A model generated the notes under the pieces. It was not told the DNA's origin. It did not search any database and saw nothing but the letters and a program-made list of their open reading frames with translations. From Alphaproteobacteria bacterium (GTDB lineage: Bacteria > Pseudomonadota > Alphaproteobacteria > UBA828), in assembly GCA_965214705.1 (NCBI GenBank), contig CBDCCI010000001.1, positions 160,001 to 224,000 of the forward strand: 64,000 nucleotides of DNA, in the 5' to 3' direction. This document shows, one piece after another, positions 953 through 47,610 of the stretch (its first letter is position 1; each line of letters begins with the position of its first letter). The position numbers and the translations under genes are program-made.

Positions 953-1536
953 TGGCGTTCCTCCGCCCCGCCAACGATTCCGCGCGCGAGGCGACGGTGG
1001 AGACGCGCTCGCTCTACCTCCGACCGCCACAGATGCGGGATTGGCGGGCCTGGGCCGAGCTCCGGGCGCTCTCGCGCGAGTTCCTGAGCCCATGGGAGCC
1101 GACCTGGCCGAGCGACGCGCTGACCCGCAGCGCCTTTCGCCGGCGCATCCGCCGCCAGTTGCGCGACGGCCAGGACGATCTGGGCTACGCCTTCTTCCTG
1201 TTCCGCCGCAGGGACGACACGCTGCTCGGCGGGATGACTCTCAGCAACGTGCAGCGGGGAGCCGCGCAATCGTGCAGCGTCGGCTACTGGATCGGACGGC
1301 CCCATGCGCAGCATGGCCACATGAGCGAGGCGCTCACCGGCCTGCTCGGCCATTGCTTCGGGCCGCTCGGCCTGCACCGGGTCGAGGCCGCGTGCATGCC
1401 GAAGAACACCGCCAGCCGAAAGCTGCTGGAGAAGACCGGGTTCCGCTGCGAGGGGTACGCGCGCGCCTACCTCAAGATCGCAGGCCAGTGGCAGGATCAC
1501 CTGCTTTACGCGACGATCGCGCCGCGCAGACCGTGA
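952..1536 (+). CDS. rimJ: RimJ/RimL family GNAT N-acetyltransferase
   Basis: ATG at 952 (TGATG coupling); FLSPWEPTW, GYWIG, LHRVEAACMPKNTASRKLLEKTGF, YLKIAGQWQDH. Confidence 0.85.
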   Translation: MAFLRPANDSAREATVETRSLYLRPPQMRDWRAWAELRALSREFLSPWEPTWPSDALTRSAFRRRIRRQLRDGQDDLGYAFFLFRRRDDTLLGGMTLSNVQRGAAQSCSVGYWIGRPHAQHGHMSEALTGLLGHCFGPLGLHRVEAACMPKNTASRKLLEKTGFRCEGYARAYLKIAGQWQDHLLYATIAPRRP

Positions 1537-1555
1537 GCGTGGCGGGAAGTCTTGA

Positions 1556-2140
1556 CTAAGCTCGGCCGGCGAAGCCCGAGAGGTTGCCGGGGTCGAACCC
1601 GAGGCGGCCGACGGCACGCTCCCACTTGGCGTCCTGGGCCTCGTCGAAGACCAGCTCTTCGTCCGCCGGCACGGTGAGCCAGCCGTTCTCCTGAATCTCG
1701 CGGTCGAGCTGGCCCGGCGCCCAGCCGGCATAACCCAAAGCCAGCATGCTGAGGCGTGGGCCGCGGCCTTCGGCCATGGCCTTCAGAACATCGATGGTGG
1801 CGGTCAGCGAGAAGCCGTCATCCACTTGCATGGTGGCTTCGTGGGTGTAGTCGGTGGAGTGGAGGACGAAGCCGCGCGCGGCCTCGACCGGGCCGCCGAA
1901 ATGCACCGGGATGGGCTTGCTTTCCTGCGCGGGCTCGATTTCGAGCTGCTCGAGCAGGTCCGAGAAGCTGAGCGATTCGAGGAGCTTGTTGACGACGAGG
2001 CCCATCGCGCCGTCTTCCGAATGGGCGCACATGTAGATGACGGTGTGCGCGAAGCGCGGGTCCGCCATCGTCGGCATGGCGACCAGCAACTGCCCCTCCA
2101 GATAGGGACCCGCGCCTTGCTCGCCGCCACTGTTCATCAC
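1556..2140 (-). CDS. YqgE/AlgH (DUF179) family protein
   Basis: GQLLVAMPTMADPRF, GAMGLVVN, GGPVEAARGFVLH, LGYAGWAPGQLDREIQENGWL. Confidence 0.93.
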   Translation of the reverse strand: MMNSGGEQGAGPYLEGQLLVAMPTMADPRFAHTVIYMCAHSEDGAMGLVVNKLLESLSFSDLLEQLEIEPAQESKPIPVHFGGPVEAARGFVLHSTDYTHEATMQVDDGFSLTATIDVLKAMAEGRGPRLSMLALGYAGWAPGQLDREIQENGWLTVPADEELVFDEAQDAKWERAVGRLGFDPGNLSGFAGRA

Positions 2141-2291
2141 ACCAATCCTTGAGCCGCCGGGCTCGTCCCGATCATCGCAAAGCGGCGCGGGGGTGACAAC
2201 CGAATGTCGTGCTCGCGTTTGATGGCGCTCCGTCCTTGCGATGAGGTAGCGCCATTCCGTTGGAATGAAAGGAGCCGCCGAGAAACCCCAG

Positions 2292-2305
2292 TTGAACGAA
2301 GCCGC
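2292..2305. repeat. Left inverted repeat of the element
   Basis: TTGAACGAAGCCGC is the exact reverse complement of 4898-4911. Confidence 0.85.
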
Positions 2306-2522
2306 TACGCGGAGTTAGCGGCGTAGAGTTCATTCATTTCCGAGGCGTCGCGGGTGCCGTTTGTTCTGTGCGTTCGCTTCCCGGTTGCGTCAGTGGCGCT
2401 CCGCCCGTCGGGTGGCGGATCCCCAGCAGCCTCCCGATCACCAGTGGTTAGCATCGACCCCTGCGACGGACCGTCGCCGGATCGGTCCGGCGGCGCGCCG
2501 TCGCGATCCAGGGAGATCGATA

Positions 2523-3401
2523 ATGACCGGGACCGCGTGCGACACGAACACCGTCACCCCTCTTCGCCAGCGCATGGAGGAGCAGCTCCGCATCGCCAAT
2601 CTGGCCGCGAGCACGTCCAAGGCCTACATCTGCGAGATCAAGAACCTGGCCAGGTACTACGACGCCTCGCCGGACGAGCTCGACGCCGAGCAGGTGCGCC
2701 AGTGGTACCTGGGGCGGATCGACAAGGGGCTCAGTCCGGGCACGACCAACGTCTCCTTCGCCGCGCTGAACTTCCTCTACATCGACACACTCGGCTGGCC
2801 TGACCATGTCGCCGGCCTGCGCTCCCGCAAGAAGCCCGGCAAGCTGCCGCGCTACATGTCGGAGCAGGAGGTCGAGCACCTCATCCTTGCGACACCCGAC
2901 CTCCGCCACCGTGCTGCCATTGTCACCGGCTATGGCGGCGGGCTCCGCATCTCCGAGACCTTGGCCATCAAGGTCGGCGACATCCTGTCGGAGAAGAAGC
3001 TGCTGCACATCCCCTCCGGCAAAGGCGGCACCGAGAGAATGGCACCGTTGCCGGACATCGTCATCCACTACTTGCGCGTCTACTACAGGAACATCTGGCC
3101 GCGTCCGACGAACTGGCTCTTCTACGGCGTCTCGCTCGACAGGCCCATCGCAACGGAGACCTTGCAGGCCGCCTTCAGGAGGGCGCGCGACATTGCCGAG
3201 CTCGACCGCAGCTACACCTTCCATTGCCTGCGCCATTCGGCGGCGACCCATCTCCTCGAGCGCGGCGGCGATATCGAGGTGATCCGGGACATGCTCGGCC
3301 ATCGAAGCGCGAACACGACCCGTCACTACGCCCGCGTCACCGGCAAGATGTTCGAGGGCCTCGACCACCCGATCTCAGGCTTCGCAGCGTTGCGCAACTG
3401 A
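2523..3401 (+). CDS. Tyrosine recombinase/integrase with N-terminal SAM-like domain
   Basis: Full catalytic set: GLRISE (R), SGKGG (K), HCLRH (HxxR), LGH, TTRHY (Y); ATG at 2523 after GGGAG. Confidence 0.93.
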   Translation: MTGTACDTNTVTPLRQRMEEQLRIANLAASTSKAYICEIKNLARYYDASPDELDAEQVRQWYLGRIDKGLSPGTTNVSFAALNFLYIDTLGWPDHVAGLRSRKKPGKLPRYMSEQEVEHLILATPDLRHRAAIVTGYGGGLRISETLAIKVGDILSEKKLLHIPSGKGGTERMAPLPDIVIHYLRVYYRNIWPRPTNWLFYGVSLDRPIATETLQAAFRRARDIAELDRSYTFHCLRHSAATHLLERGGDIEVIRDMLGHRSANTTRHYARVTGKMFEGLDHPISGFAALRN

Positions 3402-3407
3402 CGGCGC

Positions 3408-4649
3408 GTGGAGGCCGAACGCGCGGGCGTGGCGGAGATCTTCCGCCGCGCCGGCGCCGCTTTCCGTGAGCGCCACAAAGGGCGCATCGACGCCGCCCGG
3501 CTCAAGGTCATGGGCGCCATCGAGGCGTGCCGCACCGCCGTGCTCGGCGGCCACATGTACGCCTGCGAGGGCTGCGGGCGCGAGCATCCGCTCTTCAACT
3601 CCTGCCGCAACCGCCACTGCCCCACCTGCCAGGGTCTCGCCGCCAACCTCTGGAGCGAGGAGCGCGCCGGGGACATCCTGCCGGTGCCCTACTTCCATGT
3701 GGTCTTCACCCTGCCCAAGGAGGTTGCCGCCATTGCCTTCTGCAACCGCAGGGTGGTGTTCGACATCCTCTTCCGGGCCGTCGCCGAGACCCTGCGCACC
3801 ATCGCCGCCGATCCCCGCCACGGCGGCATGCGCATCGGCGGCACCGCGGTCCTCCATACCTGGGATCAGAAGCTCCGCTTCCACCCGCACCTGCACGTGG
3901 TCGTGCCCAACGCGGGCTTCGACGTAGACAGTGGCGAGTGGAAGACGGGGAGCACCACCTTCCTCGCCCCCGTCAAGGTCCTCGGCAGCCTGTTCCGCCG
4001 CCTCTTCCTCAAGGAGCTCGCCCGCGCCCACGGCCGGGGGGACCTGGAGTTCCACGGCACCCTCGCCCACCTCGCCAATCCCGGCGAGTTCCACGCCACG
4101 CTTGCCGCCGCCCGGGCCAGGGACTGGGTGGTCTACGCCAAGCGGCCCTTCCGCGGGCCTGAGCAGGTCTTCCGGTACCTCTCGCACTACACGCACAGGA
4201 TCGCCATCTCCGACAGCCGCATCGTCTCCTTCGACGGCGAGACGGTCTCCTTCCGCCACCGAAAGCCCAAGGCGCCGGGGCAGAGAAAGCCGCGCTACGG
4301 CATCGCCACCGTGAGCGCCGACGAGTTCATCCGCCGCTTCCTGAGGCACGTCCTGCCGGACGGCATGCACCGCATTCGCTACTTCGGCATCCTCGCCAAC
4401 GGCTGCCGCGCCAGCACGCTGGAGAGAGCACGCCAGGCTCTCGGCGCCCTCGGCTGCGCCGCCCCCGAGGGAAGCGTGGACGGCGCTCAGGCCGAGCCCG
4501 ACGAAGAGCCCGAGATCGGCACCGCGCCCGTGGCCTGCCCCCACTGCGGCGGCGTCATGCGCCTCGTCCGCGAAATCCGCCGCCGCCATGAGCCCCGCTC
4601 GACGCGCGGCCCGCCGGCGCTGCCGCCGACCCACAGGGGGAAACCGTGA
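3408..4649 (+). CDS. IS91 family (Y2) rolling-circle transposase with Zn-binding domain
   Basis: CEGC..SCRNRHCPTCQ Zn motif, YFHVVFTLP, HUH motif HPHLH, YLSHY (YxxxY), RIRYFGILAN, C-terminal CPHCGG. Confidence 0.93.
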   Translation: MEAERAGVAEIFRRAGAAFRERHKGRIDAARLKVMGAIEACRTAVLGGHMYACEGCGREHPLFNSCRNRHCPTCQGLAANLWSEERAGDILPVPYFHVVFTLPKEVAAIAFCNRRVVFDILFRAVAETLRTIAADPRHGGMRIGGTAVLHTWDQKLRFHPHLHVVVPNAGFDVDSGEWKTGSTTFLAPVKVLGSLFRRLFLKELARAHGRGDLEFHGTLAHLANPGEFHATLAAARARDWVVYAKRPFRGPEQVFRYLSHYTHRIAISDSRIVSFDGETVSFRHRKPKAPGQRKPRYGIATVSADEFIRRFLRHVLPDGMHRIRYFGILANGCRASTLERARQALGALGCAAPEGSVDGAQAEPDEEPEIGTAPVACPHCGGVMRLVREIRRRHEPRSTRGPPALPPTHRGKP

Positions 4650-36975: not shown

Positions 36976-37189
36976 GTCCGTCACCCTTGGCAAAGTCGCG
37001 CGCCTGCGGCGCCCCGCCATCGTACATCGGTTGGGCATAACATGATCGCCGTATCGGCGCTTGTGGGTGCGAGCGCCGCGGCCTGTCGGGGCGTCGGCGG
37101 CGCCGGCGTTCTGGGGTATTCTCCGCTCTCCCGCACACGAGCCGGCCCGAAAGCCGGCGGACTTCAGGACGAACGGCGAGGAGGGAGGC

Positions 37190-37870
37190 ATGGCGGACAG
37201 GGCCGATTGGGCATTTCCGGGCGAGGCGGAAATCCTCGAGCGCGCAGCCGATCAATACGAAGCGTCCAACCCCGACTTTCCCATCGATCCGGGCAAGACG
37301 GCGCTGCTCGTGATCGATCTTCAGGAAGGATTCGTCGCCGAGGGCGCGCGCATGTGGACCCCGGAAAACCTGCGGATCCTGCCCCGCGTCAAGGCGCTGA
37401 TCGAGCGCTGCCGCACCCTCGGCATCCCCGTCATCTTCACCGAGCACGCCCACGACGCCACGGGCCGGGACAAGGGATTGATGTGGGATGTGCCGCTCAA
37501 CCGGCCGATCAGGGACGGCGCGCTCCGGATCGGCGCCGAAGACGTGCCTACCTACCACGAGATCGCGCCGGAGCCGGGCGAGAAGGTCATCCAGAAGCAC
37601 CGCTACAGCGCCTTCTTCGATACGGACCTGCACACCTATCTGCGCGGCTGCAACGTGGACACGGTGATCATCACGGGCTGCATGACCAATTACTGCTGCG
37701 GCGCGACGGCCCGGGACGCCTTCTTTCGCGACTACAAGGTCATCTTCGGCAGTGACGTGACCGCGACCGACAACCGGGAGCTGCACGAGGCGGAGCTGAA
37801 GACGCTCCGGCGTGGCTACGCGCGAGTCGTCCCGGCCGACGAGATCCTCGGCGAGATCGGCGAGTCCTGA
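37190..37870 (+). CDS. Isochorismatase-family cysteine hydrolase
   Basis: Triad motifs VIDLQEGF (D), IQKHRYSAF (K), GCMTNYCCGATARDAF (C); GGAGG RBS. Confidence 0.9.
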   Translation: MADRADWAFPGEAEILERAADQYEASNPDFPIDPGKTALLVIDLQEGFVAEGARMWTPENLRILPRVKALIERCRTLGIPVIFTEHAHDATGRDKGLMWDVPLNRPIRDGALRIGAEDVPTYHEIAPEPGEKVIQKHRYSAFFDTDLHTYLRGCNVDTVIITGCMTNYCCGATARDAFFRDYKVIFGSDVTATDNRELHEAELKTLRRGYARVVPADEILGEIGES

Positions 37871-42721: not shown

Positions 42722-43735
42722 CTACTCCTCCGAGACTCTGACCAGCAGCTTGCCGAAGTTGCGCCCGTCGAAGAGGCGCTGAAACGCGAGCGGCGCGTTC
42801 TCCAGCCCCTCCACGATGTCCTCCTTGAAGGCGAGCCGGCCGTCGGCCAGCCAGCGGGCGAGGCGCTTGCGCGCGTGCTCGTAGTGCGCGCCGTAGGAGA
42901 AGATGTTGAAGCCCTCCACCTCAGTCTCGGTGAAGAGGATGGGCGCGAGGTGGCTCGCGACCTTGGGCGGCTCGGTCGCGTTGTAATGGGAAATGCCGCC
43001 GCAGATCACCACGCGCGCGCCGTGGGCGAGCAGGGGATAGATCGCATCGCCGATGGGCCCGCCGACGTTCTCGAAGTAGACGTCGATGCCGTCCGGGCAG
43101 GCTTGGGCAAGGGCGCCGGGTAGGTCGTCCGTGTGGCGGTCGATGGTCTCGTCGAAGCAGAGCTCTTGCGTGAGATAACGCAGCTTCTCCGCCCCGCCGG
43201 CGATGCCGACCACCCGGCAGCCAGCGATCTTCGCCACCTGGCCCGCGACCGCGCCGACCGCGCCCGCCGCTGCCGAGATCACGACCGTATCGCCCGGCGC
43301 GGGCCGGCCGACCTTGACCAGCCCGAGATAGGCGGTGAGCCCCGTCATGCCGAGGATGCCGATGGCGGTGGAGAGTGGCCCCAATGCCGGGTCCAACTTG
43401 CGCGCGCTGGCACCTTGCGCGATGGCGTAGTCCTGCCAGCCCGTGTAGTCGTCGACGATGTCGCCCGGCACGAAGTCCGCGTGCCGGCTCTCCACCACCC
43501 GGCTGACCGCGCCGCCCACGATCACGTCGCCGAGCGGAATCGGCGGGTAGTAGCGCAAGTCCGTGCCCATCCTGAGCCGCATGTAGGGGTCGAGGGAGAG
43601 CCAGATGGTCCGAACCAGCAGCTCGCCGTCTGCCGGCTCGGGCACCGGCGCCTCGACGAGGCGAAAATCCGTCTCCTTTGGCGCCCCTTCCGGGCGGGTG
43701 GCGAGGACGATCTGGCGGTTGGCGTTGGCGATCAT
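42722..43735 (-). CDS. NADP-dependent MDR oxidoreductase (CurA/YncB/PTGR-like)
   Basis: [55 protein letters not shown]. Confidence 0.92.
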
Positions 43736-43860
43736 TGGCCGGGCTCCCTCCTGACGTGAGCCCGAGTCTATGCAAGCCCGGTGTGGCGGCAAATTCGGCT
43801 GTTTTCCGCGCGGTCCGGCGACTACTCTGGTCATGGGACGCAATAGGGAGACGACGGCCG

Positions 43861-44556
43861 ATGAACCTCAATCCGACGGAGAAGGAGCGGCTCACCATCT
43901 TCACGGCCGCCCAGCTCGCGCGCGAGCACAAGCGCCGCGGCATCAAGCTGAGCCACCCTGAGGCCCTCGCCTACATCTGCGACGAGCTCCTGATGTGCGC
44001 CCGCGAGGGCCGCTCGCTCAAGGACCTCATGGGCTACGGCGCGGAGATCCTCACGTCGGACGACGTGCTGCCCGGCGTGCCCGAGTTGGTTCCGGTGATT
44101 CACGTGGAAGCGATGTTCCCCGACGGCACCAAGCTCATCACGGTGCATCAGCCGATCCGCCCAGGTAAGGCCAAGAGCGCGCCCGGCCCTCGCGCCGGCG
44201 AGATCATCACCCCCGACGCGGAGATCGAGCTGAACGCGGGCCGGCGAACCGGCTCGGTCTCCGTCACTAACACCGGCGACCGCCCGGTGCAGATCGGCAG
44301 CCACTTCCACTTCTTCGAGGTCAACCGGGCGCTCGAGTTCGACCGGCAGGCGACCTTCGGCATGCGTCTCGACATCCCGTCCGGCACCGCCGTCCGCTTC
44401 GAGCCGGGGCAGGAGAAGCAGGTTGCGCTGGTGGAGTTCGGCGGCCGCGGCCGGGTCAGCGGCTTCAACTCCCTCACCGAGGGCATGATCGACGCGCCTG
44501 CGGTGAAGGAGCAGGCGATCGCCCGCGCCAAGGCGGGCGGCTTCCGGGGAGCGTAG
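43861..44556 (+). CDS. Urease-like fused gamma-beta subunit
   Basis: Gamma domain [28 protein letters not shown] is in frame with beta domain [33 protein letters not shown]. Confidence 0.93.
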
Positions 44557-44560
44557 GCAG

Positions 44561-46270
44561 ATGGTGAAAATCGCGCGCGAGACCTATGCCCGCTACTACG
44601 GGCCGACAAAGGGCGACAAGATCAGGCTCGGCGATACCTCGCTGATCGGCGAGATCGAGCACGACCACACCTCTTATGGCGACGAATGCTGGACCGGCGC
44701 CGGCCGCGTGATGCGTGACGGCATGTCTTACGACGCCCACACCTCCGCAGCCGACGGCGCCATCGATATGCTGGTGGAGAACGCCACCGTCATCGACCCC
44801 GTGCTCGGCCTGGTGAAGGCCGACATCGGCATCAAGGACGGCAAGATCGCGGGTGTCGGCAAGGCCGGCAACCCCAACACCCAGGACGGCGTGGACCCCG
44901 ATCTCGTCTGCGGCCCCAACACCACCTACTACCCCGCCGGCGGCCTCATCGTGACGCCGGGCGGCATCGACGTGCACGTCCACTGGATGTCGGCGGAGCA
45001 GTGCAACCACGCGCTGGCGAGCGGGCTTACCACCATGATCGGCGGCACCATGGGGCCGCTCTTCGCCATCGACTGCGGTGGCCCTTGGAACACCTACCGC
45101 ATGCATGAGGCGTCGGAGGCGTGGCCGATAAACTTCGGCTTCTTCGGCCGCGGCTCGTCCCACGATCCCGCGACCGTCGCAGAGCACCTCGACGGCGCCA
45201 TCATCGGCGTCAAGATCCACGAGGACTACGGCGCCATGCCGGCCACCATCGACGCCTGCCTGCGCGCCTCGGCCGAGCATGACTTCCCGGTCCAGATCCA
45301 CACGGACACGCTGAACGAATCGGGCTTCTACGAGGACACGATGGCGGCGATCGCAGGCCGCACCATCCACATGTATCACACGGAAGGCTCCGGCGGCGGC
45401 CATGCACCCGACATCATTCGCTGCAACGGCGAGCCCCACTGCCTGCCGTCCTCGACCAATCCGACCAACCCCTACACGGTCAACGTCTTCGACGAGCAGC
45501 TCGACATGACCATGGCCTGCCACCTGCTGCGCTTCGACCTGCCGGAGGACGTGGCCTTCGCCGAGAGCCGGGTGCGCCACGGCACCATCGCCGCCGAGGA
45601 CGTGCTGCACGATATCGGCTCGGTCTCGATGTTCGGCTCCGACAGCCAGGGCATGGGGCGGATCAACGAGGTGATCACCCGCTGCTGGCAGCTCGCCAGC
45701 AAGATGCGCGACCAGCGTGGGCGGCTACCGGAAGAGACCACCGCCGATGCGGACAACGAGCGCATCAAGCGTTACATCGCGAAGTACACCATCAACCCGG
45801 CGATCGCCTTCGGCATCGATCAGTACGTGGGCTCGCTGGAGCCGGGCAAGATGGCCGACCTCGTCACCTGGAAGCCCGCCTTCTTCGGCATGAAGCCCTT
45901 CGGCGTGATCAAGGGCGGCTTCGTCGCTTGGGGCGCGAGCGGCGATCCCTCGGGCAGCTATTTCCAGACCGAGCCGGTGATCATGCGGCCGCAGTTCGGC
46001 CATCACGGGCGGGCGCCGGCGACGCTGAGCGCCAACTTCGCCCATCGGCGCGCGCTCGACATCGACGTGCAGGGCCGGCTCGGGCTCGCCAAGCCGATCC
46101 TGCCGATCGGGAGCTTCACCAAGCTCACCAAGAAGGACATGCTGCACAACGACGCCTGCCCCGACATCCGCGTCGACTCCCAGACCTTCGAGGTCTTCGT
46201 CGACGGGACGCTCGCGGCCTGCGAGCCGATCGACACGATCACCCTCGGCCAGAACTACCTGCTGCGCTGA
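44561..46270 (+). CDS. ureC: Urease alpha-subunit homologue, divergent (substrate uncertain)
   Basis: [77 protein letters not shown]. Confidence 0.9.
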
Positions 46271-46279
46271 GCCCGTCTC

Positions 46280-47137
46280 TTGGCTGCCGCCACCATGCCG
46301 GCCGCCCGGCCCAACGAAGGGCCGCAAGCCGCGCTCCGCTTCGCCCGCGCGCCCGACGGGCGGAGCTACATCGCGCGCCAGCGTGTCGGTTATCCCTTTC
46401 ACATCACCCGGCCGTTCTATCTCGACGAGACACCGGCGGGGGCGCTGACGCTCTATCTCCAGTCGGTCTCCGGCGGCATCTATCAGGGTGAAGACCTCGT
46501 GATGACCTGCGCCGCGGGCGCCGGCAGCGCCGCCCACGTGACCACCCAGGCAGCGACCATCGTGCACCGCATGCCGGCGGCGCCGGCGCGGCAGACGGTC
46601 GCTTTGGAGGCCGCGGACGGCGCGCTGCTCGAATACCTGCCGGACCCGCTGATCATGTTTCCCGGCGCGCGGCTGACCTCTGTGCTGGAGATCGAGGCTG
46701 CGTCGGGCGCCACGGTCATCGCATCCGAGAGCTTTGCGCACCACGACCCCGGCGGCGAGGACCGCCGCTTCGAGAGCTTTGAGGCGGAGATGCGGGTCCG
46801 CGACGAAAGCGGCCGGCTGCTTGCGCTGGAGCGCTACGCCGTGGCCGGCGACCGTCTGGCGGCGGGGCGCGGCCAGATCGCGCGCTGGCCCGCGCAAGGC
46901 AGCTTCGTGGTCGCCCATCGTGGATCTGAATGCGAAGCCATTCTGGCAGCGCTCCGCTCGGCCCTAGCCCCGACGGATGCGTTTTACGGCGGCGCCTCGG
47001 CGCTCCCCAACGAAGCCGGCGTCGGCGTGCGCCTGCTCGCGCGGGACGGTGCCGCGCTGCGTCGCGGGCTGGAGGCGGCGTGGCGCGCGGTGCGGCTCGC
47101 ACTCTACGGTGCTGAACCCGCCCCCCGCCGCAAGTGA
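46280..47137 (+). CDS. ureD: Urease accessory protein UreD/UreH
   Basis: YPFHITRPFY, QSVSGGIYQGEDL, TTQAAT.VH, LEYLPDPLIMF, RK C-terminus; start 46280 (TTG) or 46295 (ATG). Confidence 0.88.
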   Translation: MAAATMPAARPNEGPQAALRFARAPDGRSYIARQRVGYPFHITRPFYLDETPAGALTLYLQSVSGGIYQGEDLVMTCAAGAGSAAHVTTQAATIVHRMPAAPARQTVALEAADGALLEYLPDPLIMFPGARLTSVLEIEAASGATVIASESFAHHDPGGEDRRFESFEAEMRVRDESGRLLALERYAVAGDRLAAGRGQIARWPAQGSFVVAHRGSECEAILAALRSALAPTDAFYGGASALPNEAGVGVRLLARDGAALRRGLEAAWRAVRLALYGAEPAPRRK

Positions 47138-47149
47138 GCCAGTACCGAC

Positions 47150-47211
47150 CTATCGCGCACTGCTGACACCGCTTCACGCAAAGTCGGCGTCGACGAATAG
47201 GCGGCGATCAT
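47150..47211 (-). pseudogene. Remnant of a vapC toxin gene (internal deletion)
   Basis: ATG ATC GCC (MIA) overlaps the antitoxin stop (ATGA) and is followed out of frame by LFVDADFA*SGVSSAR*, resembling a VapC C-terminus. Confidence 0.55.
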
Positions 47212-47465
47212 CCCGGTAAGCCATCATCGTCGTAAAGAAAATCCTGACTGCGGGCAGCGGAGGCGCCCCCGGTTCGCTTGTCCCGAGCAGCCGCTTGCAC
47301 GGCCGCAATCACCGCACGCCGAGTCTCGGCATAGGGTTTCGGTCGCACTGGCACTAACTGGACCGTTGCCTTGCCGTGACGGGTCAGCACCACCTCATCG
47401 CCCTCTTCGGCCCGGCGGATAAGTTCGGCCAATCGTACCCTCGCCTCGCTGACGGAAATTCGCAT
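47208..47465 (-). CDS. Phd/YefM family antitoxin
   Basis: MRISVSEARVRLAELIRRAEEGDEVVLTRHGK..ARSQDFLYDDDGLP. Confidence 0.9.
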   Translation of the reverse strand: MRISVSEARVRLAELIRRAEEGDEVVLTRHGKATVQLVPVRPKPYAETRRAVIAAVQAAARDKRTGGASAARSQDFLYDDDGLPG

Positions 47466-47610
47466 CGGACCAATTCCCTCAATCAGGGCCGCTCAAGCCC
47501 CGAATATGAGCCCTGACGTGGTCCAATCAAGACCGACAACTCAGATACTGTCCGGCACACAATCTCTTGAGGCCCTTGATCAAGGCGCGCGGCCTGCCAA
47601 GGTTGCAGCC

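Follow-up and report, generated by a model that had tools for sequence, protein, structure and literature searches.

Urease is a textbook enzyme and the residues that contact its substrate are taken as near-invariant. In the Sporosarcina pasteurii enzyme the urea contacts that concern us here are made by backbone carbonyls: those of Ala170 and Ala366 bind the urea nitrogen that sits on Ni(2), Gly280 and Ala366 bind the distal nitrogen, and the flap is locked by Asp224, His323 and Arg339 (PMC7433671). We analysed a 64 000-nucleotide stretch of DNA (the window) from a sponge-associated alphaproteobacterium of the UBA828 lineage (assembly GCA_965214705.1, contig CBDCCI010000001.1). Judging from its sequence, the segment at positions 43861–47137 of the window is an intact three-gene nickel urease cassette, ureAB–ureC–ureD, belonging to a lineage in which the urea-contacting loop is four residues shorter, and its product most likely still splits urea.

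The reference enzymes Klebsiella aerogenes UreABC and S. pasteurii urease are about 48–51% identical to the window enzyme, and a model of the latter fits them with a template-modelling (TM) score of 0.96–0.97 and a root-mean-square deviation (r.m.s.d.) of 1.5–1.6 Å. The window enzyme differs from both in the shorter loop, in the replacement of Thr168–Thr169 by Ile-Asp, of Ala363 by Gly and of His321 by Leu (K. aerogenes numbering), in the fusion of its gamma and beta subunits and in that its helper genes are not collected in one operon. A two-subunit architecture with fused gamma and beta chains is also found in Helicobacter pylori UreA/UreB and H. mustelae UreA2B2, the alpha-type chain of which is 50% identical to that of the window, but in the Helicobacter enzymes the loop is long and the second motif reads DSQAMGR. 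The Helicobacter-type model NF010592 scores 260 bits on the window ureAB, below its cut-off of 353, and the fused chain belongs to another family model, NF009671.

Fused ureAB clusters have been encountered before. In a 2008 tree those of Bradyrhizobium BTAi1, Pseudomonas syringae B728a and Streptomyces lie near Brucella UreC2 and Yersinia, and in that tree they are already grouped apart from typical ureases (PMC2492869). Brucella ure2 is a further parallel in being a second urease cluster beside a main one with an unsettled function. Compared by description only, it differs in having separate subunits and in grouping with Yersinia (PMC2492869), and it carries urea and nickel transport genes (PMC2492869; PMC2868824).

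The cassette and the active site of its alpha subunit

The three genes are co-directional on the plus strand and are separated by gaps of 4 and 9 bases. The first, ureAB (43861–44556), is preceded by GGGAGA at 43846–43851, 9 nt ahead of its ATG, and encodes a fused urease gamma–beta subunit of 231 residues in which Pfam Urease_gamma covers residues 1–99 and Urease_beta residues 113–208; it matches NF009671 ('bifunctional urease subunit gamma/beta') with 335.7 bits against a cut-off of 243. The second, ureC (44561–46270), encodes the alpha subunit of 569 residues with the Pfam domains Urease_alpha and Amidohydro_1, which falls in subclade A of the short-loop lineage described below. It passes the urease alpha profile TIGR01792 with 730.9 bits against an equivalog cut-off of 680 and scores 783.3 bits with NF009686 (cut-off 354). 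The third, ureD (46280–47137), encodes the urease maturation scaffold of the short-loop lineage (285 residues; Pfam UreD, 132.8 bits) and is the sole ureD of short-loop type in its genome. Because ureC lies above the TIGR01792 cut-off, automatic pipelines do label it as urease, as an earlier sequence-only reading of the window had expected, and its close relatives are named 'urease subunit alpha' in their database sources.

Residue equivalences were taken from HMMER alignments to the K. aerogenes chains. They confirm that the six metal ligands and the flap Cys-His pair, which the sequence-only reading had listed as kept, are all retained: His139 and His141 correspond to K. aerogenes His134 and His136, the carbamylated Lys218 to Lys217, His247 to His246, His273 to His272 and Asp361 to Asp360. 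The substrate-binding His220 (His219), the catalytic flap His321 with its partners Asp222 and Arg337 (the Asp221–His320–Arg336 triad) and Cys320 (Cys319) are likewise present; the roles of His220 and of the flap residues are those given in PMC7433671. In an alignment of 32 sequences, canonical and short-loop alike, ligands and catalytic residues are invariant.

An AlphaFold2 model of the window UreC, built from this 32-sequence alignment, has a mean predicted local distance difference test (pLDDT) score of 88.6 and a predicted TM score of 0.93. Several ten-residue blocks that hold active-site motifs score lower (69–80), among them residues 161–170 (76), 271–280 (73), 311–320 (79) and 361–370 (76). 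The 39 best matches of the model in the PDB are all ureases (TM score 0.91–0.97, r.m.s.d. 1.5–1.9 Å), which places the model in the urease fold, and sequence identity to solved ureases is 48–52%.

The changed motifs and their coordinates proved to be exactly those given in the sequence-only reading. The active-site loop Gly161–Trp176 (45041–45088, plus strand) has 16 residues instead of 20 and so does not follow the canonical GGGTGP...ATTCTPGPW; Ala169 stands at the position of K. aerogenes Ala167, the alanine being kept, and Ile170–Asp171 take the place of Thr168–Thr169. No solved urease has so short a segment: in each of the 32 distinct alpha sequences it is four residues longer (74–75 residues versus 70–71 in the window enzyme). 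These sequences include K. aerogenes, K. pneumoniae, S. pasteurii, H. pylori, H. mustelae, Yersinia enterocolitica, Ureaplasma parvum, jack bean and pigeon pea. The second motif, DSQGMGR (residues 361–367; 45641–45661, plus strand), contains the nickel ligand Asp361; its second carbonyl donor is a glycine, Gly364, where K. aerogenes has Ala363. The flap tip CHLLRFDLP (residues 320–328; 45518–45544, plus strand) retains the catalytic Cys-His, and the residues that follow are specific to subclade A, with Leu322 at the position of K. aerogenes His321. The divergent motif in the ExxFGGGK region and HWMSAEQ are also present as described. The motifs had been called near-invariant in true ureases; they are indeed altered here, but the Ala167 position is a glycine in the solved Y. 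enterocolitica urease.

Since these urea contacts are backbone carbonyls, the change from Ala to Gly preserves them, and the carbonyl at Gly364 is presumably kept. From the conserved residues, UreAB and UreC would assemble in the manner of the two-subunit ureases, with carbamylated Lys218 bridging two nickel ions that would be held by His139, His141, His247, His273 and Asp361. Urea would be bound by His220 and by the main-chain carbonyls of Ala169, Gly278 and Gly364, and the flap residue His321, locked by Asp222 and Arg337, would aid the release of ammonia.

The short-loop lineage

The best 120 database relatives of the window UreC were aligned together with 77 related genomic loci, and the 193 full-length sequences sort by motif into 43 of subclade A, one A-like sequence, 99 of subclade B, 41 other short-loop sequences and nine canonical ones. 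The canonical group follows the patterns GGGTGPA.GT.ATTCTPG.W, SSDSQAMGR and MVCHHL, and every non-canonical sequence combines a loop that is 3–4 residues shorter with DSQGMGR. We define the short-loop lineage by the loop x-[IV]-D-[CS]-G-G, DSQGMGR, Met271, Phe417, a fused gamma–beta partner and monophyly, and the window UreC shows every one of these characters. Gly364 is found in all 184 distinct short-loop sequences and Asp171 in 177 of them; all nine canonical sequences have Ala at the 364 position. Further changes that separate the two groups are Ile170, Gly173, Met226, Met271, Gly359, Leu378 and Phe417.

In a quick maximum-likelihood tree (LG+G4, 42 rows, rooted on the seven canonical rows), a branch with a support of 99 in the Shimodaira–Hasegawa-like approximate likelihood-ratio test separates the 35 short-loop rows from the others. 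Subclade A (six rows) and subclade B (nine rows) have supports of 100 and 98, respectively, and the UreC of the third urease locus of the host forms a long basal branch of unsure placement. The tree and the motif tables agree on a separate clade with consistent substitutions, the outcome that the sequence-only reading had looked for, and no solved urease carries the same substitutions. The short loop and the Ala363Gly change, which that reading had stressed most, are found across the lineage and are therefore synapomorphies of a widespread minority lineage rather than peculiarities of the window gene. Of 120 other genomes sampled evenly across the class, 25 carry the canonical DNA pattern and five that for DSQGMGR; two of these five have both. 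In a sample of the phylum the DSQGMGR-type DNA pattern is present in 14 of 401 genomes, the host included, which is an upper bound since the loose serine codon code also lets through some matches that read Trp, Cys or Thr.

Subclade B includes sequences from P. syringae, Aminobacter, Labrys, Hyphomicrobium, Mesorhizobium and Methylophaga. The annotated 'second ureases' of this kind (P. syringae, Bradyrhizobium, Streptomyces, Aminobacter, Hyphomicrobium and Methylophaga) share with the window enzyme the I-D-C-G-G loop, DSQGMGR, the fused ureAB and 62–65% identity, but have one extra loop residue (TVGIDC), the canonical flap CHHLNP and GGGK, and are usually accompanied by AmiR, an amide/urea ATP-binding cassette (ABC) importer and a full helper set. 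A typical B-type cluster consists of AmiR (an ANTAR regulator), an AmiC/UrtA-like binding protein, urtBCDE, ureE, ureF, ureAB, ureC, ureG, ureD, a HupE/UreJ nickel permease and a helix–turn–helix–cupin regulator, with UrtB, UrtC, UrtD and UrtE exceeding their equivalog cut-offs. In marine members of subclade A the genes ureE–ureF–ureAB–ureC–ureD–ureG are adjacent, and one other short-loop subclade lies near a gene of the agmatinase family, the members of which release urea. B-type clusters in three Hyphomicrobiales and other alphaproteobacterial assemblies (L066, L067 and L071) sit between an N,N-dimethylformamidase beta-subunit-like gene and sarcosine oxidase genes. Taken as a whole, the context of the lineage speaks for a nickel enzyme with either urea or a small amide closely resembling it as the substrate.

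Subclade A is set apart by 11 fixed positions at which B agrees with the canonical enzymes (47, 49, 195, 199, 209, 223, 236, 237, 322, 455 and 465). Two of these lie near catalytic residues: Tyr223 adjoins Asp222, and Leu322 adjoins His321. Other short-loop subclades also have these residues at the two positions. The clearest marks of the subclade are the flap tip CHLLR[F/Y]DL and the motif ECWTGAGR; HWMSAEQ is restricted to the genus-level group of the window itself. B-like paralogues with 62–67% identity accompany subclade A in 13 of the 14 genomes that carry it, the exception being a 2.4 Mb assembly, and ten of the 14 also hold a paralogue resembling the third host locus (48–50% identity). 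Subclade A is thus an additional paralogue, nearly always found together with B, and this suits a kinetic or regulatory isozyme as well as one of shifted specificity.

Three paralogues per genome and dispersed helper genes are also what one might expect of a redundant, decaying or non-catalytic copy, a notion to which we give hardly any credence. The reading frames are intact, the catalytic residues are complete in the 43 subclade-A sequences, and ureC is under strong purifying selection: among the window and 15 close relatives the median pairwise ratio of nonsynonymous to synonymous substitution rates is 0.074 over 120 pairs for ureC, compared with 0.169 over 68 pairs for ureAB and, for ureD, 0.121 over 36 pairs from 11 sequences. 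The cassette is kept as well, with tblastn placing ureD directly 3' of ureC in 25 of 25 subclade-A loci, one of them clipped by a contig end. DNA runs that contain the stretch are mostly labelled as sponge metagenomes, and in four metatranscriptome libraries (sponge, marine and coral) contigs that are 90–99% alike cover ureAB–ureC, and in two of them ureD; uncovered bins in these contigs carry no meaning. Because such libraries can hold DNA and the contigs come from relatives, the RNA-derived contigs that span the cassette give a weak hint of transcription and argue against a dead copy to that extent.

Three urease loci and a split helper set in the host

The host assembly comprises 7.9 Mb in three contigs (C1–C3), with a completeness of 98.5% and a contamination of 8.7%, and contains three UreC homologues. 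Locus A is the cassette in the window (C2:160001–224000). Locus B (C2:92891–94600) encodes a UreC that is 63% identical to that of the window and consists of ureF, fused ureAB, ureC and a cytosine-deaminase-like amidohydrolase. Locus C (C1:3218086–3219777; 10078–11778 of L013, minus strand) has a UreC of 49% identity and comprises separate ureA, a long ureB (168-residue UreB), ureC, ureE, ureF, ureG and ureD. The sequence-only reading had raised the question of a canonical ure operon elsewhere in the genome; there is none. The host genome lacks the DNA pattern for the canonical DSQAMGR, all three urease loci are of the short-loop kind and all three alpha subunits combine a shortened loop with DSQG. 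In four related genomes (G009, G010, G419 and G420) the three alpha genes lie on one contig, so that their co-occurrence is not an assembly artefact.

The helper genes are divided. Apart from the set at locus C, the host holds exactly one ureD, ureF, ureE and ureG of short-loop type, at three places, so that the gamma and beta subunits and UreD, UreF, UreG and UreE are all present in the genome. The window ureD is 51% identical to ureD of the marine subclade-A clusters versus 26% to that of locus C. The ureF beside locus B (C2:95318–96019) is 52% identical to its marine relatives versus 28% to locus C, and the ureE and ureG genes on the third contig (C3:204440–205542) are 62% and 82% identical to the marine genes versus 34% and 55% to those of locus C; this ureG is confirmed by a profile score of 238.4 bits against a cut-off of 204.2. 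In G009 and G010 a second ureG is likewise found away from locus C, and their B loci retain ureF–ureAB–ureC–amidohydrolase. We infer that loci A and B share this one split helper set and that locus C has its own. Nickel insertion into the window enzyme would then be carried out by single-copy, lineage-specific helpers, with UreD encoded next to the window ureC, UreF beside the second paralogue and UreE–UreG on another contig.

This arrangement bears on a third possibility, that the enzyme is a urease with a metal other than nickel, such as iron, as in H. mustelae UreA2B2. A different metal would explain why most helper genes are missing nearby: in the window and its 15 close relatives ureD alone is adjacent, with ureE, ureF or ureG within 8 kb in none of the 15. 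The fused gamma–beta and alpha subunits are as in Helicobacter. Yet a full helper set of short-loop type exists elsewhere in the genome, UreD is kept and conserved, and ureE, ureF and ureG are adjacent in the marine members of subclade A. The H. mustelae chain (PDB entry 3qga) has the long loop and is no closer to the window enzyme than are other solved ureases; the window enzyme does not fall with the iron ureases of the UreA2B2 type. We consider a metal other than nickel very unlikely.

Several observations concern the surroundings of these loci. Genes for a transposase of the IS91 type, an integrase of the phage type and a PIN-domain protein flank locus B (1407–3695 and 10017–10496 of L012) and suggest that it has moved. 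Its cytosine-deaminase-like amidohydrolase (408 residues; 5620–6846 of L012, contig C2) scores below all curated cut-offs and is found directly 3' of a B-type ureC in four genomes (also in L091, L093 and L095), with 74–90% identity. The UreC of locus C is odd in having DIHPH, the short loop GGGSGPKTVGIECPG, HCEGAGGGNAPD, AFIQGRAR and DSQGVGR, in addition to its long branch in the tree. Locus C adjoins a caprolactamase/hydantoinase-like pair and an ABC importer; A–B-like pairs of this family lie both there (2975–7067 of L013, C1) and beside the lone short-loop ureE–ureG (10293–14080 of L096, C3). This proximity could be chance or a link to nitrogen sources of the hydantoin/creatinine type.

Within the window, an isochorismatase-family gene (37061–37870) falls in the same cluster as genes upstream of the marine subclade-A loci, but as the sequences are merely 28–32% identical we do not count this as a conserved linkage. 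A Phd/YefM-family antitoxin gene lies just past ureD (47208–47465, minus strand), with no space downstream for a partner toxin gene. A scan of 43500–47600 for promoter and terminator consensus sequences gave no sites, inspection of 43739–43860 by eye showed no convincing sigma-54 site, and Rfam at gathering scores gave no riboswitch or other RNA match in the window. Over eight related loci Rfam returned only two 5_ureB_sRNA matches (8169–8451 of L030 and 8180–8452 of L080, minus strand), both antisense to the ureC coding sequence; they are most likely due to a resemblance between this coding sequence and the Helicobacter ureB region.

Substrate of the window enzyme and significance of the lineage

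The reading that we favour is that the product of the cassette is a working di-nickel urease isozyme and belongs to a distinct short-loop lineage. Nickel dependence and urea as the substrate we infer from the features set out above, and the window enzyme is probably a kinetic or regulatory variant that acts on urea. A short-loop UreC is the sole UreC homologue in four of the 21 genomes checked (G001, a Methylophaga; G002, a Hyphomicrobium; G007 and G008), and among these four a urea carboxylase above cut-off is present in G001 alone. The reshaped pocket proposed in the sequence-only reading is a reasonable idea as such, but the short loop and the replacement of Ala363 by Gly belong to a whole widespread lineage with ordinary nickel-urease neighbourhoods, and subclade A contributes little of its own to the reshaping.

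The rival to be taken most seriously, possible although we think it unlikely, is a nickel amidohydrolase of the urease fold the preferred substrate of which is not urea but another small amide or substituted urea, with formamide, acetamide, an N-alkyl- or hydroxy-urea or an N-carbamoyl compound as candidates. The same di-nickel hydrolysis would then take place in a rebuilt distal pocket under a changed flap tip. Several findings suit this alternative and weigh against a urease. Both the loop and the Ala363Gly change are located where two carbonyls bind the urea nitrogen. The loop is rebuilt beside the carbonyl on the Ni(2) side, with the gain of the acidic Asp171 in nearly all short-loop sequences, and every solved urease has the long loop. 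The C-beta atom of S. pasteurii Ala366 touches active-site water (PMC7433671), and this side chain is lost throughout the lineage. Subclade A has its own flap tip and GAGR motif, and its regular company of a B-like and often a third paralogue fits functional divergence. According to the title of a reference cited in PMC7433671, jack bean urease itself acts on formamide, acetamide and N-methylurea.

The transport genes raise a similar doubt. B-type clusters open with the AmiR/ANTAR regulator and an AmiC/UrtA-like binding protein, and these binding proteins score about 400 bits, under the UrtA cut-off of 492.75; none of five genomes searched for UrtA had one above its cut-off. A binding protein of this kind (407 bits) lies in the host, together with UrtB-type permeases, beside the aliphatic amidase AmiE (683.7 bits against a cut-off of 427; 3543–9605 of L097, C3), and the transporter there resembles an importer of amides more than an established one for urea. 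Brucella provides a precedent, in that disruption of ureC2 or ureB2 leaves measurable urease activity unchanged (PMC2492869). Finally, we found no paper that assays any member of the short-loop lineage, within a coverage that excludes subscription journals.

On the other hand, no neighbour of the cassette in the window points to another substrate and no riboswitch was found. Subclades A and B differ at only 11 positions where B is canonical, most of these states recur in other short-loop subclades, including subclades whose genomes contain no other urease homologue, and the carbonyl donors themselves are retained. That the entire short-loop lineage, and subclade A especially, consists of nickel amidohydrolases with a non-urea physiological substrate appears doubtful to us. 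Their substrate would in that case be an N-carbamoyl compound, a substituted urea or some other small amide, such as a product formed when host-derived creatinine or hydantoin is broken down in the sponge.

In an enzyme family of which the substrate contacts are held to be so constant, a large natural lineage thus has the loop rebuilt, and it occurs in plant pathogens, methylotrophs and sponge symbionts. If its members are true ureases, they reveal how much the pocket tolerates, and their affinity for urea or their sensitivity to inhibitors may differ. Such variants bear on ureC-based surveys of nitrogen cycling in the sea and in soil and on urease inhibitors. If the reading as non-urea enzymes were true, thousands of 'urease' entries would be misnamed and a new nickel enzyme activity would be there to be found. 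Under either reading the split, shared helper set of the host makes a test case for the specificity of urease maturation.

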